DNA from: Candidatus Bathyarchaeota archaeon
GTDB taxonomy: Archaea; Thermoproteota; Bathyarchaeia; TCS64
Direction: 5' to 3'
DNA length: 64,000 nucleotides
Assembly (NCBI GenBank): GCA_016930055.1
Contig: JAFGHP010000083.1
Coordinates: forward strand, 15,138 to 79,137
The notes under the pieces were generated by a model, which saw only the letters and a list, made by a program, of their open reading frames with translations, did not search any database and was not told the origin of the DNA. Below, piece after piece: positions 9,928 through 15,042 of this stretch; position 1 is the first letter of the stretch; every line of letters begins with the position of its first letter. The position numbers and the translations under genes are program-made.

Positions 9928-10383
9928 TTAATATATCTTAAGCTCTGGTTTATCCCTATCGAGATCTTTCTTGATTTGGGTAGACATAGCGTCTAATAAA
10001 CTTCGACCTTTTTTACTAATTATACGACCGTTTTTCTCAACCTTCTCCACCAACCCTGCTTTTTCCATTTGTTGAAGAGAAGTACGAATAATATTACCAC
10101 CAGCTAAGCGATGATGAGCTGGAAAATTGCCTATTCTTTTACGACCACCATATTCTTTTCTAAGTCTTTGAACCCCAATTGGACCATTAATATACAATTT
10201 TCTTAAGAGTGAGGCACTTCTAACATACCACCAATCACTTATTTGGGGAACCCTTTCCACATGGCTTCCAGTCTTCACATAATCTGCCCAGTCAGGAGGG
10301 GTCACTTCTTTAATGCTCTCTTTAATATAGCTACTAAGTTTCGAAATTAGTATATCTGCTGGCACGTCGTATACAGTCGTCAC
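9928..10383 (-). CDS. rps19e: 30S ribosomal protein S19e
   Basis: 151 aa with the S19e signature (DWWY.R.ASLLRKLY..GPIGV..LR..YGG). Confidence 0.9.
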   Translation of the reverse strand: MTTVYDVPADILISKLSSYIKESIKEVTPPDWADYVKTGSHVERVPQISDWWYVRSASLLRKLYINGPIGVQRLRKEYGGRKRIGNFPAHHRLAGGNIIRTSLQQMEKAGLVEKVEKNGRIISKKGRSLLDAMSTQIKKDLDRDKPELKIY

Positions 10384-10659
10384 GTTTATATCCCTTTTCC
10401 AGATGCTAAGTTATCGAAGTTAAACAAGCATATATGTATAGCTTTTTTACATCGAGTTTTAGCAATCCTAAACCACACAATTAAAATAAAAAGGTTTAGG
10501 CAAAAAAAGATTATATATAAAAATCTAGAATAACTTGATTAAATTTACTATTAAATATATTTTAGTTTTGGGTGAACAAATTTTATTCCAACCAACCAGC
10601 TCTCAGCGAAAGGGGTATGCACGCATATTTTTTATTAAAAGCACCTGATAATTAATACT

Positions 10660-10854
10660 ATGAAAAATAGAAAGAAGACCGCTAGATGTGAGATATGCTT
10701 ACAGCCAGCAACAAAAGATTACATGTTTAAATTAGCATATTACGAGGTTAGAAAAAAAGTTAATAAAGTGTTCTGCGGAGCATATTGCCTTAAAGACTTA
10801 GTTGAAAAAGAACTTGATAAAACGCACCTAGATGAACTGTACTCACCAGAATAA
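10660..10854 (+). CDS. small zinc-ribbon protein (hypothetical)
   Basis: The 64-aa ORF has CEIC ... CGAYC Cys pairs. It lies at the left edge of the R-M island. Confidence 0.35.
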   Translation: MKNRKKTARCEICLQPATKDYMFKLAYYEVRKKVNKVFCGAYCLKDLVEKELDKTHLDELYSPE

Positions 10855-11078
10855 TTAGTTGATGAAAACAGGATTCATTGATGATTAAAATGATCTTTAT
10901 CATAATAGCTCAATTATTTTGAAGTACTTCAACGAACCATTCAAAAACAAGTACTATGATCTTCCAGTATTTCGTTTTGCTAGAAACCATGGATGTAAAA
11001 ATTGTACAAATCAAAAATGTGACCTCAAAACTATGAAAAATTGTGAGGAAATAAGGTAGATGAGTTTATTTTATAAAT

Positions 11079-11684
11079 TTAACTTCCCCTATAAGTTGCT
11101 TTTTGAACAATTGTAAAAATCTCATCATCATTATATAAAGCATCAAGAACTTCTTTAAACATATAAGCTTCATGATTACTTGTTTTTTCTTCAATCATCA
11201 TAAGCTCGATAACATGTCCTATAAACTCAACGGAATATTCACCATATTTATCTAATTTTTTAAATCTCTTAAAATCCTTGTCTTTAGTTAATTTTAATTC
11301 ACATTTTTGCTGTTCTTCTTTTGTTGTGAAAGGTTTAATATTTTCCCACATATCAGACAGATATTTAATACACGATTTAGTTAATTTGGGACTGTGTTCC
11401 TTTTTAAGCAATAGATCAATTGCCCAATGAATATGTTGCGGAGTTCTAACTCTTTTTCTCAGCTCCTGATACTTTACAATTATATCTAAATCAGGATGGT
11501 TACCATAACTTCCTTGAAAAACACCGATAATTGTTCCATTTTTTAATCTGAATTCTTTAAACGCAAATAATTTTCTATGTTTTCCATTTCTTCCTTTTAC
11601 TGAACATTCCATCAAAATATTATCATCTGTATGTTTTATTTCTAAATCAGGTTTAAAATTTTTTGTATTTTTTAAATATTTCAA
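11079..11684 (-). CDS. hypothetical protein (R-M island; divergent from the Dam-like MTase)
   Basis: The 201-aa ORF has no recognisable family. The clean ORF shares a 114-bp divergent promoter region with the Dam-family MTase gene. Confidence 0.5.
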   Translation of the reverse strand: MKYLKNTKNFKPDLEIKHTDDNILMECSVKGRNGKHRKLFAFKEFRLKNGTIIGVFQGSYGNHPDLDIIVKYQELRKRVRTPQHIHWAIDLLLKKEHSPKLTKSCIKYLSDMWENIKPFTTKEEQQKCELKLTKDKDFKRFKKLDKYGEYSVEFIGHVIELMMIEEKTSNHEAYMFKEVLDALYNDDEIFTIVQKATYRGS

Positions 11685-11798
11685 AAAGTTAATACTCTCC
11701 GTTAAAATACATGAAACTTGTTTTAATAAATAAAAGTTTAGTACTAATAAATAATAGGATATAAATTATATGATTGATTATCTCAAAATCAAGGTATC

Positions 11799-12623
11799 AT
11801 GATCGAACCAATATTGAAATGGGCTGGGGGAAAAAGAAGTCTCATACCAGAAATAATATCATTGTTACCTAAAGATTATAGAAACAAAAAATATCATGAA
11901 CCCTTCTTTGGTGGTGGAGCCTTATTTTTTGAGATCCAGCCTAAATCTGGTTCTATCAATGATATAAATAGACAATTAATGAATTTTTATAGGGTAATTC
12001 GAGATAAACCAGAAGAAATCATTGAATTAGCATCTAGTTATAAATACGAAAAAGAAGAATTTTACAAGCTTCGAGATAAATATAATACACCAAACCTTAC
12101 AGATGTTGAATATGCCTCACTTCTACTATACTTGAACAAAACTGCATTCAATGGATTATATCGTGTAAACTCAAAAGGGCTATTCAATGTACCTTTTGGT
12201 AGATATAAAAACCCGACAATTGTAGATGAAAATCGAATAAAAAAAGCTAGTAAAGCTCTAAAAAATGTCGAAATCTTAAACAAAGATTTCTCTTATGTAA
12301 TTGATTATTCAAAAAAAGGTGATATCTGTTATTTTGATCCACCCTATTCCCCATTAAATAAGACTGCTTATTTCACTTCATATTCGTCAGATGGTTTCAG
12401 TTGGGAAGATCAAATAAGACTTAGAGACACTTGTATTTCACTTGATAAAAAAGGTGTTTTATTTGTTTTAAGTAATTCATATGTTAAGGAATTAGTTGAA
12501 GAATACCGAAAAATAGATTCATTTTATATTAAAACTGTTAAAGCTAATCGAGCAATTAATTCAAAAGCTAGTAATCGAGGACCCATTAACGAGATTCTTG
12601 TAACAAATATACTTGTAAAATAA
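11799..12623 (+). CDS. Dam-family (D12 class) DNA N6-adenine methyltransferase
   Basis: The 274-aa ORF has the N-terminal KWAGGK motif and the DPPY catalytic motif (FDPPYSP), and collinear similarity to E. coli Dam and DpnM-type enzymes. Confidence 0.85.
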   Translation: MIEPILKWAGGKRSLIPEIISLLPKDYRNKKYHEPFFGGGALFFEIQPKSGSINDINRQLMNFYRVIRDKPEEIIELASSYKYEKEEFYKLRDKYNTPNLTDVEYASLLLYLNKTAFNGLYRVNSKGLFNVPFGRYKNPTIVDENRIKKASKALKNVEILNKDFSYVIDYSKKGDICYFDPPYSPLNKTAYFTSYSSDGFSWEDQIRLRDTCISLDKKGVLFVLSNSYVKELVEEYRKIDSFYIKTVKANRAINSKASNRGPINEILVTNILVK

Positions 12624-13271
12624 TTATTTTTTAACTTTTTCAAATACTAGAAAATATGTATGCATAATAACTGAACAAGGACGATTTTTTACTTGAAAAG
12701 CAGTTGGCGACATACGATGATGAATAAATATGAAAGTATCTATTAATCTAAAATTTGAAAGTTTACTAACCCAAGTTATATGGTGAGCATAAAATTTACG
12801 CTCTTTTGTTTGATATTGATCAGCACATTTTAAAATGAGCTTACCATCATCTTTTAACCAATCAGGAAATTTATCATTAGCAAAAACTATGAACCATAAT
12901 AAATCATCATAGGTTTGTATATAATCTCCGTAATCCTGTCTTCTGGGATCATTTGAGTTTTTATAACCAAAGAAATAAGGTGGATCATAAATTATACCAT
13001 CAAATTGTTTATTAAAATTTAGATCTTTGATAGCGCTAACAACTTCTTGTCCATAATTAATTTTATCTGAGAAAATTACTTCTCCATATTCACTAATTTT
13101 ATTACTTCCATTAATATCTGGTTTATAATATTCAACCCAAAGATGCTTTTTACCACATGTAGGATCCAGAATTATCTTATTTTTTGTAGGAGGAATATGA
13201 AAATTTAAGATATCATAAAAATATTCGCCTAATTTTTTATTGGCATTGTGAGATAAAGGATATTTAGCCAT
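12624..13271 (-). CDS. putative small DNA methyltransferase (N6A/N4C, DPPY motif)
   Basis: The 215-aa ORF has an AdoMet motif-I-like DPTCGKK followed by IIYDPPYFFGY (motif IV). It is convergent and abutting the Dam-like gene and divergent from the MutH-like nuclease gene. Confidence 0.55.
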   Translation of the reverse strand: MAKYPLSHNANKKLGEYFYDILNFHIPPTKNKIILDPTCGKKHLWVEYYKPDINGSNKISEYGEVIFSDKINYGQEVVSAIKDLNFNKQFDGIIYDPPYFFGYKNSNDPRRQDYGDYIQTYDDLLWFIVFANDKFPDWLKDDGKLILKCADQYQTKERKFYAHHITWVSKLSNFRLIDTFIFIHHRMSPTAFQVKNRPCSVIMHTYFLVFEKVKK

Positions 13272-13424
13272 TTTAAAGATCTAGATCATAAGAATAAAAA
13301 AAGATATGTGTATTTTATCTATCTAAAGTTAGTTTAAAAAAATATATTACTTTCAATATTTTAAAAGTTTTTTAATAAATTCGGTATTCAGAAAAAATAA
13401 ATCTTTTAAGATTAAACTTAAATC

Positions 13425-14030
13425 ATGAATCGACAAGAAGCTATTGAAAAATTAAATTGTTTAATAAATCAGGATTTAGTTGAACTAGCAAAAAAATTTA
13501 ATGTTACTATCTGGACTGGAACAACTAAAAATAAAGGGTGGGCTGGACATACAATTGAAAAATATTTAGGTTTAGAACTAAATTCAACTCAAAAACCTGA
13601 TTTTGGTGATTGGGAATTAAAGATAGTTCCGTTACTATATGATTCATTTGGTAAATTAAAAGTAAAAGAGACAATGGCAATTACAATGATTAATCCTTCT
13701 CATGTTATTCAACATGATTTTGAAGATAGTCATTTATTAGCAAAATTAAATAGACTTGTTATATGTTCAAGAATATTTGAAAGTCAATCTGAAGATCATT
13801 CTTTATTTCATAGTGCAGCGATTTTTGATTTATCGAATAATGTGTTATTTGAACAAGTAAAAAAAGATTACGAAGAGACTAAAAGTTGTATTATTACGAA
13901 TGGATTTAATAGTTTATCAGGTAATATGGGTCAACTTGTACAACCAAGAACAAAAGGACCAGGTCATGGAAGTACTAGTAGAGCTTTTTATGCTAGAATT
14001 GGGTTTGTAGAAAAAATCTTAAAATTATAA
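13425..14030 (+). CDS. MutH/Sau3AI-family GATC-type endonuclease (putative restriction subunit)
   Basis: The 201-aa ORF reads KNKGWAGHTIEKYLGLELNSTQKPDFGDWELKIVPL, aligning with MutH KGWIG..LE.WLG......P...ALGVELKTIPV including the D..ELK catalytic motif. The C-terminus (PRTKG...SRAFYARIGFVEKI) matches the MutH ...LPRGFYLKKNF tail. Confidence 0.8.
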   Translation: MNRQEAIEKLNCLINQDLVELAKKFNVTIWTGTTKNKGWAGHTIEKYLGLELNSTQKPDFGDWELKIVPLLYDSFGKLKVKETMAITMINPSHVIQHDFEDSHLLAKLNRLVICSRIFESQSEDHSLFHSAAIFDLSNNVLFEQVKKDYEETKSCIITNGFNSLSGNMGQLVQPRTKGPGHGSTSRAFYARIGFVEKILKL

Positions 14031-14246
14031 TTTTAAAATTATAAGAATTAACTTAATTATTAAATTAAAAATATAAAAAATTTAAATAACATTGTTTCGT
14101 TAATTTGATATATTATTAGATTTATTTAAAGATATGAGTGGAGGACGATATAATATTAGGAGAACCTTGGTACAGTTCAGAGCAATTAAGTCAAGAACCA
14201 TAATCCATTTAATTACCTAAGGTAAATATAATAGAAGAGGTTTTTT

Positions 14247-14600
14247 ATGCAACTAATAGAAAACATCGCCTATATATTAATAAATTATTCTAAAATATTT
14301 AATAATGGTATTTATTCAACCTCAAATATACTTAAAAAATATTTGGCAACATATTTTTTTTCTCTATTATTATATTCAATAGATTTTTCAAGTTTATTAT
14401 TCTCAATTTATTGTTATGATGCTTTCGGAGGAGGGCTTCTTGATATATATATTTTATTAATTATACCTATATTGTTTATCCGCTCATATAGTATAATTAA
14501 GTTGAACTTTATAAAATTTAAAAAAAATGCTCATTTGATTTATTTATTTCTAATTTATGGTTTTCCATCAATTCCCTTTGTTTTTTTTTGGAGAAATTAG
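14247..14600 (+). CDS. hypothetical small hydrophobic protein (doubtful; in an AT-rich spacer)
   Basis: The 117-aa ORF is low-complexity Ile/Leu/Phe/Tyr-rich. It could be spurious in a 730-bp AT-rich region. Confidence 0.2.
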   Translation: MQLIENIAYILINYSKIFNNGIYSTSNILKKYLATYFFSLLLYSIDFSSLLFSIYCYDAFGGGLLDIYILLIIPILFIRSYSIIKLNFIKFKKNAHLIYLFLIYGFPSIPFVFFWRN

Positions 14601-14763
14601 GAATATTATCCTTGTTCAATTGGAATCTATCCCAATTAGATCAAAATAAAGCTAATCTTGCATTTATTTTATTGTCTTTAATACCACAAATATTGATTGA
14701 TTATCCTAGACTAATTTTATTAATTTATATATTTAAAGAAAAAAATAACAGCTCTAAGTAGAT

Positions 14764-15042
14764 TTATTCTTTTACATAAAATTCAATATATCCACATACA
14801 CTGCATCTATAAGTTTTAATGTTCATTATTGCTGTTGATTCTCTACCTAGAAACCCTTTTTTGCCTGTTTTTTCTTCCCAATAAGGATACACCGTTGCAG
14901 GTTGCCCTATTTGTGTTGTACCAAAACTACTCATAGGACTCATTGGATTCATTGAAGATGTACTAGGTGGGATATCTATTCTGAAATCACCACTTTTCAT
15001 AGTTCCTCCACATTTAGGACAATTTGTATTTTGATTGGACAT
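14764..15042 (-). CDS. zinc-ribbon domain protein (hypothetical)
   Basis: The 92-aa ORF has an N-terminal CPKCGG and a C-terminal CSVCGY, forming a C4 zinc ribbon. It lies at the right edge of the island. Confidence 0.45.
   Translation of the reverse strand: MSNQNTNCPKCGGTMKSGDFRIDIPPSTSSMNPMSPMSSFGTTQIGQPATVYPYWEEKTGKKGFLGRESTAIMNIKTYRCSVCGYIEFYVKE

Follow-up and report, generated by a model that had tools for sequence, protein, structure and literature searches.

The question raised by this locus is what a small conserved protein, encoded back to back with a Dam-type DNA methylase, does in an archaeal genome. The locus lies in a stretch of 64,000 nucleotides from a Candidatus Bathyarchaeota archaeon (assembly GCA_016930055.1, contig JAFGHP010000083.1, positions 15,138 to 79,137 of the forward strand; in the following the window), and the gene in question ends at window position 11079 on the minus strand. 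The uncharacterised family to which its product belongs is here referred to as FAM, and homologous loci and proteins carry L and P numbers, respectively. We report that FAM genes in archaea and bacteria lie nearly always next to the methylase genes of GATC-type restriction-modification (R-M) systems and, judged from its sequence, the window locus appears to hold a Type II system for GATC, one component of which is unclassified and fits no known fold. The interpretation that we favour, although it is close to an even call, is that FAM represents a nuclease with a new fold that is directed at GATC and sensitive to methylation.

The longest open reading frame (ORF) runs from a TTG at 11684 to 11079 on the minus strand, encodes 201 amino acids and leaves 114 bp to the divergent methylase gene, which is of the D12 class; it was in this form that the original prediction described it. 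The ORF is real but the start was wrongly placed. All homologues (160/160) are approximately 172 to 179 amino acids long and cover ≈88% of the 201-residue query, beginning at its residue 25 ('MECSVKG...'), and none of them has the extra 24 N-terminal residues that follow from the TTG at 11684. Moreover, the NCBI copy of the same gene (MBN1683423.1, from a Candidatus Bathyarchaeota metagenome-assembled genome; 99% identical) encodes 178 amino acids. Because of these lengths, the query coverage and the 178-residue copy, the gene is almost certainly 11079..11612 (ATG start, 177 amino acids) or 11079..11615 (TTG start, 178 amino acids), with its start 69 to 72 nucleotides inside the ORF. With the corrected start the divergent spacer (11613..11798, sequence read directly) is therefore 183 to 186 bp instead of 114 bp. 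An A/T-rich, TATA-like stretch is present ≈25 to 34 nucleotides upstream of the ATG at 11612, and both promoters are presumably located in this spacer. FAM proteins are 55 to 78% identical across phyla with 18 to 19 invariant residues, and the ratio of nonsynonymous to synonymous substitution rates (dN/dS) is ≈0.05 to 0.14; the gene is therefore not a chance ORF.

In total 161 loci were surveyed: 80 species-level loci and the window (81 loci, mostly archaeal; the species set), and 80 metagenome loci representing the bacterial-type branch (the bacterial-type set). Neighbouring genes were annotated using purpose-built hidden Markov models (HMMs) and cross-checked against precomputed Pfam gene calls. 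A methylase gene of the D12 (PF02086) or N6_N4 (PF01555) class was present within 3 kb of the FAM gene at 147 of the 161 loci (71/81 in the species set and 76/80 in the bacterial-type set), mostly at a distance of 0 to 600 bp, and the co-occurrence with Dam-family methylases that was to be expected from the original prediction is thus borne out. FAM together with one or more methylase genes and no nuclease gene was seen at 65/81 species loci and 28/80 bacterial-type loci, while a DpnII or MutH-like nuclease gene was present in addition at 6/81 and 49/80 loci, respectively. Considering only those species loci with at least 2.5 kb of sequence on both sides, 40 of 47 hold FAM and methylase genes only, and unbiased clustering of the neighbours gave no other nuclease candidate near FAM in the species loci. 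The two genes are here usually convergent or divergent and nearly touching. The commonest bacterial layout is a tight operon, D12 > DpnII > FAM > N6_N4, often with overlapping stop and start codons; independent gene calls gave the same order for Riemerella and for a lineage that is widespread and associated with humans.

With respect to the methylase, the partner in the species set is D12 only at 25 loci, N6_N4 only at 33 and both at 13. These classes are unrelated and yet interchangeable, and it is therefore the methyl mark that matters and not the methylase protein. The Dam-like enzyme is thus a recurrent partner of FAM, as suggested originally, but the association is not specific for D12: N6_N4 methylases are found equally, and at L188 the FAM gene follows a homologue of the 215-residue methyltransferase encoded in the window (see below). 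The idea that N6_N4 partners produce N4-methylcytosine, such that two R-M pairs would differ in their mark, is not supported, since nearly all partners carry the adenine-type DPPY motif.

The likely target is suggested by the company that FAM keeps. The nucleases that co-occur with it are all GATC enzymes, i.e. members of the DpnII family, MutH/Sau3AI-like proteins (in the window and at 12 other loci) and DpnI (at three loci). In the pooled loci GATC is also the most depleted of the 256 tetranucleotides, with an observed/expected ratio of 0.56 for archaeal loci with FAM and methylase only and 0.48 for bacterial-type loci; for the window the ratio is 0.84. The DpnM-like, DpnII, MutH-like and DpnI neighbours together with the GATC depletion point to GATC as the sequence on which FAM would act.

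The protein itself gave no match in Pfam, PADLOC or PHROGs and one meaningless match in NCBIfam, and neither single-sequence nor profile searches against PDB sequences returned a match. The original statement that no family is recognisable consequently stands, and no housekeeping family was matched. The structural comparison proposed at the same time yielded a confident AlphaFold2 model (34-sequence alignment; predicted local distance difference test score, pLDDT, 89.9; predicted template modelling score, pTM, 0.86), in which a five-stranded N-terminal beta domain (residues 2-49) is predicted to be followed by seven helices (residues 60-172). Foldseek comparison with the PDB gave nothing significant, the best match (E 0.75) being between the beta domain and the SH3-like DNA binder Cren7, and among viral models the best match (E 0.22) was to another uncharacterised protein. 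The modelled fold is thus without a known relative in the structure searches made. No PD-(D/E)xK, HNH, GIY-YIG, phospholipase D (PLD) or half-pipe fold or motif could be recognised. Nor is FAM a diverged version of its neighbours: hmmscan gave no match to the DpnII (PF04556), MutH/Sau3AI (PF02976) or DpnI/Dam-replacing (PF06044) families, hhalign probabilities were 0.1% (against 40 DpnII neighbours), 0.1% and 0.3%, respectively, there is no similarity in fold to MutH/Sau3AI, and hhalign revealed no relationship to the D12 and N6_N4 methylases. A helix-turn-helix (HTH) family was not matched even at E≤1, and no other known DNA-binding domain was detected.

A comparison of 145 distinct sequences showed the following positions to be invariant or nearly so: G34, D43, Y48, R56, T57, P58, K59, H60, H62, W63, D66, K70, G124, E125, Y126, F130, E142 and K143. 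Most of these have polar side chains (D, H, H, D, K, E, K, R, Y), which looks like the residue set of an enzyme. FAM proteins are also basic (median isoelectric point, pI, 9.2; 10.3 for the beta domain of the window protein).

Unbiased ORF clustering identified only one other recurrent neighbour family, here called FAM2, with ≈180 amino acids, no annotation and members at ≈10 loci (L072:6546-7127, L021:2862-3416, L041:6524-7075, L083:4421-4960, L188:4728-5249 and others), where it is encoded beside FAM; there is no copy in the window. FAM2 is a remote FAM homologue (hhalign probability 78%, E 1.7e-5) in which the counterparts of D43, P58, H60, D66 and K70 are kept. The two proteins may act as a heteromer. 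D43, H60, H62, D66, K70 and E142/K143 are candidate catalytic residues; of these, D43, H60, D66 and K70 are conserved in FAM2 as well.

Loci that depart from the pairing are instructive with respect to function. Ten species loci have no methylase gene within 3 kb, and at six of these FAM is less than 400 bp from a contig end. At three woesearchaeal loci the gene convergent with FAM, in the position of the methylase, encodes a complete DpnI (Dam-replacing; PF06044 and PF17726; L082:3907-4686, L087:6434-7213 and L089:4160-4939), and at L088 this position is taken by a gene for a 360-residue protein with a weak NucS_C-like match. At all four loci FAM stops after residue ≈148 with the last two helices lost, and at L082 the N6_N4 gene beyond DpnI is also truncated (199-residue fragment). 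Comparing L082 and L087, DpnI is 92% identical whereas the FAM gene is 72% identical, and the DpnI genes therefore arrived later. The truncated copies beside DpnI show a dN/dS of ≈0.12, a value that says nothing on whether they still function as dS is saturated and DpnI is much younger than the divergence of FAM. The reverse kinds of decay also occur: at L111, L125, L130 and L137 DpnII is frameshifted or deleted while FAM and the methylases are intact, and at L030 and L100 FAM is frameshifted or fragmentary with intact methylases beside it. An apparent methylase frameshift beside an intact FAM gene at L063 was dismissed since it is in reality a run of N in the assembly.

Taken as a nuclease, FAM would be a small, basic enzyme of two domains that targets GATC in its unmethylated state and is kept in check by Gm6ATC methylation, i.e. 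a Type II restriction nuclease whose fold has no counterpart among solved structures. In the window it would be the second nuclease beside a MutH-like one in a four-gene island with two methylases, and most species loci (mostly archaeal) would be minimal two-gene R-M modules with FAM as their sole nuclease. This is the most economical reading because it accounts for the methylase linkage, the status of FAM as sole partner, its persistence without DpnII, its truncation where the methylase has been replaced, and the catalytic-looking residues on a basic protein. The GATC context and the fused forms of FAM (see below) were also counted in its favour. The originally suggested second restriction nuclease of unknown fold thus still leads, as a prediction. 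A wider proposal, to which we give somewhat less than an even chance, is that FAM and FAM2 together make up a structurally new class of DNA endonucleases that are sequence-specific and sensitive to methylation, with a catalytic fold to be added to the PD-(D/E)xK, HNH, GIY-YIG, PLD and half-pipe folds of restriction enzymes.

Several observations weigh against a nuclease, and the first two that follow are the most serious. A canonical GATC nuclease is already encoded at 49 of the 80 bacterial-type loci, in the window, and at L021 and L188, the archaeal loci most closely related to that of the window; two isospecific nucleases in one operon is an unusual arrangement, and an accessory role fits these loci better. 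As described above, sequence, profile and structure searches alike revealed no nuclease fold. At L095 (Prevotella) an intact FAM gene is solitary, with no methylase gene within 3.4 to 6 kb, and at L056 an intact FAM gene lies beside a D12 gene that a tandem duplication of 8 bp has disrupted; at both a methylase encoded elsewhere is possible. Finally, GATC is depleted to an equal extent (0.54) at the four loci with another gene in place of the methylase. The depletion may therefore reflect long-term GATC restriction pressure at the level of the lineage and not FAM specifically, and we discarded it as proof of restriction by FAM.

The main alternative is that FAM is a non-nuclease accessory protein, a DNA-binding reader of GATC or of its methylation state that tunes or times methylation or restriction, for example as an operon regulator, a sequestering protein or a factor that the second methylase needs; at loci without a nuclease gene, the methylase alone would be its partner. 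The loci just mentioned, where FAM is part of a complete DpnII- or MutH-type system and the stop and start codons commonly overlap, argue for such a role, as do its basic character, the lack of a nuclease fold and the small beta domain with its faint (E 0.75, not significant) likeness to Cren7. The frequent adjacency of FAM2 could likewise mean a hetero-oligomeric DNA-binding module, and in Prevotella intermedia 17F a second GATC methylase showed no activity when it was cloned by itself (PMC5608340). On the other hand, 65 of the 81 species loci have no nuclease that FAM could assist, it is retained after the loss of DpnII, and its mobile modules with a methylase, found in variable, low-GC and defence-island settings, resemble R-M pairs and not orphan methylases. 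Moreover, methylases of the DpnM-type D12 class are active alone, FAM has neither an HTH nor another known DNA-binding domain, and its invariant His/Asp/Glu/Lys set looks catalytic. We regard an accessory role as less likely than a nuclease, but as a serious alternative. A further idea is that FAM is a backup toxin tied to the R-M system and directed at something other than DNA, e.g. a HEPN-like RNase set free when the system is lost or inhibited by a phage; PrrC with EcoprrI is a precedent for an R-M-linked toxin, and linkage between HEPN proteins and R-M systems is known. The R56-T-P-K-H-I-H62 segment at the start of helix 1 (invariant R56 and H62 with five residues between them) agrees with the Rx4-6H pattern of HEPN proteins and lies in an all-helical domain, but the motif is short and may have arisen by chance, and comparison of structures did not reveal a four-helix HEPN fold, leaving the idea without structural support. 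Defence-island settings with TIR, OLD-family and MmeI neighbours and one fusion to a TIR domain (P0231) would suit a toxin, yet it would leave unexplained why a GATC methylase of any class but no set protein partner is needed, and the two-gene modules hold no restriction enzyme to guard. We consider a toxin improbable.

Two roles that had been listed among the original candidates, a methyl-dependent (Type IV, DpnI-like) nuclease and a classical controller (C) protein, draw on no more than the position beside a methylase gene. A nuclease dependent on Gm6ATC would, if encoded beside an active methylase of the DpnM type, cut up the DNA of its own host, and true DpnI is found at three related loci that lack a full-length methylase and where FAM is truncated; such an activity is effectively excluded. 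C proteins are HTH proteins of ≈80 to 100 amino acids encoded ahead of the nuclease gene, whereas FAM has no HTH, is with its 177 residues twice the usual size, carries enzyme-like invariant residues and varies in order relative to the nuclease genes. Even taken together these two roles are highly improbable. For a hitch-hiking or housekeeping gene that is functionally unconnected with the methylases, a linkage to GATC methylases at 147 of 161 loci in two domains of life and between unrelated flanks would be hard to explain, and the probability of this reading is close to nil.

Known GATC systems provide points of comparison. The DpnII/MboI/LlaDCHI cassettes have the same pair of methylases (D12 and N6_N4), and often the same nuclease (PF04556), as are found around FAM, such that the bacterial operon D12 > DpnII > FAM > N6_N4 corresponds to an MboI-type operon plus one gene. 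The classical cassettes consist of three genes and are not known to include a FAM member; in archaea FAM usually replaces DpnII and does not accompany it. In SsuDAT1I of Streptococcus suis, which acts on GATC, two methylases are combined with two isoschizomeric nucleases, both of the DpnII/MboI family. This sets a precedent for the arrangement that the window and the bacterial operons would have if FAM is a nuclease, with nucleases of equal specificity and two methylases in one cluster; the difference is that FAM, the second candidate here, has no known fold and only a predicted nuclease role. MutH and Sau3AI share the suggested target of FAM but are PD-(D/E)xK enzymes. R.PabI, a GTAC-targeting glycosylase with a half-pipe fold, was found by comparative genomics beside a methylase and is like FAM a small protein with no recognisable nuclease motif that was flagged solely by its methylase linkage, but PDB searches gave no structural similarity between the two.

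Alternative DpnI, DpnII and DpnIII cassettes occupy one and the same locus in Streptococcus (PMC12707154, PMC4471560). The three woesearchaeal loci with DpnI in the methylase position beside a truncated FAM gene resemble such a cassette swap, in which methyl-dependent and methyl-sensitive GATC systems are exchanged, with the difference that the swap here cuts through the 3' end of FAM. A methylome study of Prevotella intermedia 17F, with REBASE-style annotation, lists as 'orphan' a pair of GATC methylase genes (M1.Pin17FII and M2.Pin17FIIP; chromosome I, 1675829-1678549) with a gap of 867 bp between them, and the genomic DNA of this strain shows unexplained resistance to Sau3AI as well as to DpnI (PMC5608340). 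The size of the gap would suit a FAM member.

Returning to the window, FAM is one of four genes on a low-GC island (10400..14800; 21 to 30% GC compared to 33 to 41% in the flanks, according to the composition profile) inserted among housekeeping genes: the gene for ribosomal protein S19e ends at 10383, and genes for a P-stalk protein and alanyl-tRNA synthetase are located from 15200 onwards. The divergent gene (11799..12623, plus strand) encodes a DpnM/Dam-type D12 N6-adenine DNA methyltransferase of 274 amino acids with a DPPY motif (PF02086, E=7.9e-66; TIGR00571 'dam', 286 bits with a cutoff of 115). Its best solved relative is DpnM (M.DpnII 1, 2dpm; E=1.8e-70), followed at a distance by Escherichia coli Dam (2e-35), and its product would thus be Gm6ATC. 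A small atypical DNA methyltransferase of 215 amino acids, also with a DPPY motif, is encoded by 12624..13271 on the minus strand (PF01555, E=0.0015, under the curated cutoff). It is probably the second methylase of the GATC set; it belongs to a conserved family of its own, with 181 homologues of ≈214 amino acids that are nearly all unannotated, and may represent a third class of methylase in GATC systems. The fourth gene (13425..14030, plus strand) codes for a MutH/Sau3AI-like PD-(D/E)xK endonuclease of 201 amino acids with the motif 'PDFGDWELK' (PF02976, E=6.9e-13; NF040973 Sau3AI family, 2e-17, and MutH, 1e-15, both far below the curated cutoffs; PADLOC REase_II, 8e-16) and is the predicted canonical GATC nuclease of the island.

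Because of the gene order at L188, a 548-kb archaeal contig (FAM2 ... 215-residue methyltransferase homologue > FAM > D12 > DpnII), and the bacterial operons D12 > DpnII > FAM > N6_N4, the FAM, D12, 215-residue methyltransferase and MutH-like genes of the window are, as far as sequence and order tell, one recurring GATC set. In such predicted sets the slot for the canonical nuclease is taken by DpnII or a MutH-like enzyme and that for the second methylase by N6_N4 or the 215-residue enzyme. The same two lines of evidence overturn the original argument that the MutH-like protein is paired with the other methylase, leaving FAM to the Dam-like enzyme.

Some further features of the island were noted. 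The MutH-like protein is a short, stand-alone archaeal form with an intact PD...ELK motif, and comparable short genes are located beside FAM at about a dozen other loci (e.g. L030, L101-L103, L156 and L172). MutH of E. coli nicks DNA as a monomer, and Sau3AI is a fused pseudo-dimer; double-strand cutting by the short form is puzzling. Two small cysteine-rich ORFs are situated at the island edges, one for a 92-residue protein with two CxxC pairs (14764-15042, minus strand; DUF6487 at the gathering cutoff, E 5e-5) and one for a 64-residue protein with a CxxC...CxxxC pattern seen in its sequence (10660-10854, plus strand). Between the MutH-like gene and the island edge there are two hydrophobic ORFs of 117 and 57 amino acids (14247-14761, plus strand; ≈21 to 23% GC), and this stretch could represent a membrane protein or non-coding filler.

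Other neighbourhoods have features of their own. At L001:327-3210 (and also at L002-L010), which are Thermoplasmata-like, FAM and N6_N4 genes lie beside genes for a TIR_2 protein and an uncharacterised 510-residue protein, downstream of an Apyc1-like metallo-beta-lactamase gene, a setting that constitutes a defence island. An ORF of 46 to 54 amino acids is often present between the methylase and FAM genes (L001, L014 and L019).

FAM also occurs in fused and extended forms. P0124 is a D12 methylase fused to a FAM domain. In P0231 (L187:4408-5574) a FAM domain without H60 and W63 is followed by the TIR domain; no methylase gene is nearby, a CHAT-STAND-TPR gene adjoins, and the FAM domain looks to have been re-used as a sensor in another defence system. 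Long forms of ≈335 and ≈280 amino acids have N-terminal extensions of ≈165 and ≈100 residues, respectively, with no Pfam match, the shorter extension carrying a 'CPACAFE.GY' motif. They are encoded downstream of MutH-like or DpnII genes (L101-L104, with FAM at 5001-6023 in L101; P0151, P0155, P0159, P0166 and P0173; P0161, P0190, P0209, P0228 and P0243). A tandem domain duplication in the ≈335-residue forms, giving a pseudo-dimer like that of Sau3AI, was considered and rejected as undetectable (hhalign 0.3%).

The family is large. An exhaustive profile search yielded 323 clusters (50% identity), and for the bacterial branch alone a search started from one of its members yielded over 1000 (90% identity); all names attached to these proteins read 'hypothetical protein'. 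Archaeal hosts include Woese-, Nano-, Pace-, Micr- and Aenigmarchaeota (DPANN), Bathyarchaeia, Methanoperedens and Thermoplasmata, and bacterial hosts Dehalococcoidia, Patescibacteria, Clostridia and many Bacteroidota, with Riemerella anatipestifer (MDY3548741.1), which is naturally competent, Flavobacterium buctense (WP_187659404.1) and Epilithonimonas bovis among the cultured ones. Searches of plasmid and phage collections (tblastn with the archaeal and the bacterial form as queries) and a scan of IMG/VR gave no match, and no description of FAM was found in the literature.

Systems acting on GATC (Dam, DpnI, DpnII, MboI, Sau3AI and MutH) are well studied, and yet a regular, widespread and conserved constituent has escaped annotation; loci annotated as 'orphan' GATC methylases, such as those of the P. 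intermedia type, are the kind of place where a FAM-like gene would be overlooked. As an accessory protein, FAM would add to Type II systems a fourth kind of functional component, previously undescribed. As a nuclease, it would bring a new fold to restriction enzymology and a new GATC-cutting reagent, possibly thermostable or distinct in its sensitivity to methylation. 'Orphan' Dam-type methylases in archaea and Bacteroidota would then have to be read anew, their GATC systems being complete R-M systems, with a bearing on genetic tractability: Prevotella and Riemerella are difficult to transform. In that case the DpnII-type operons of many Bacteroidota would contain FAM as a second, hidden nuclease, and in DPANN and other archaea FAM would be the principal enzyme of GATC restriction.

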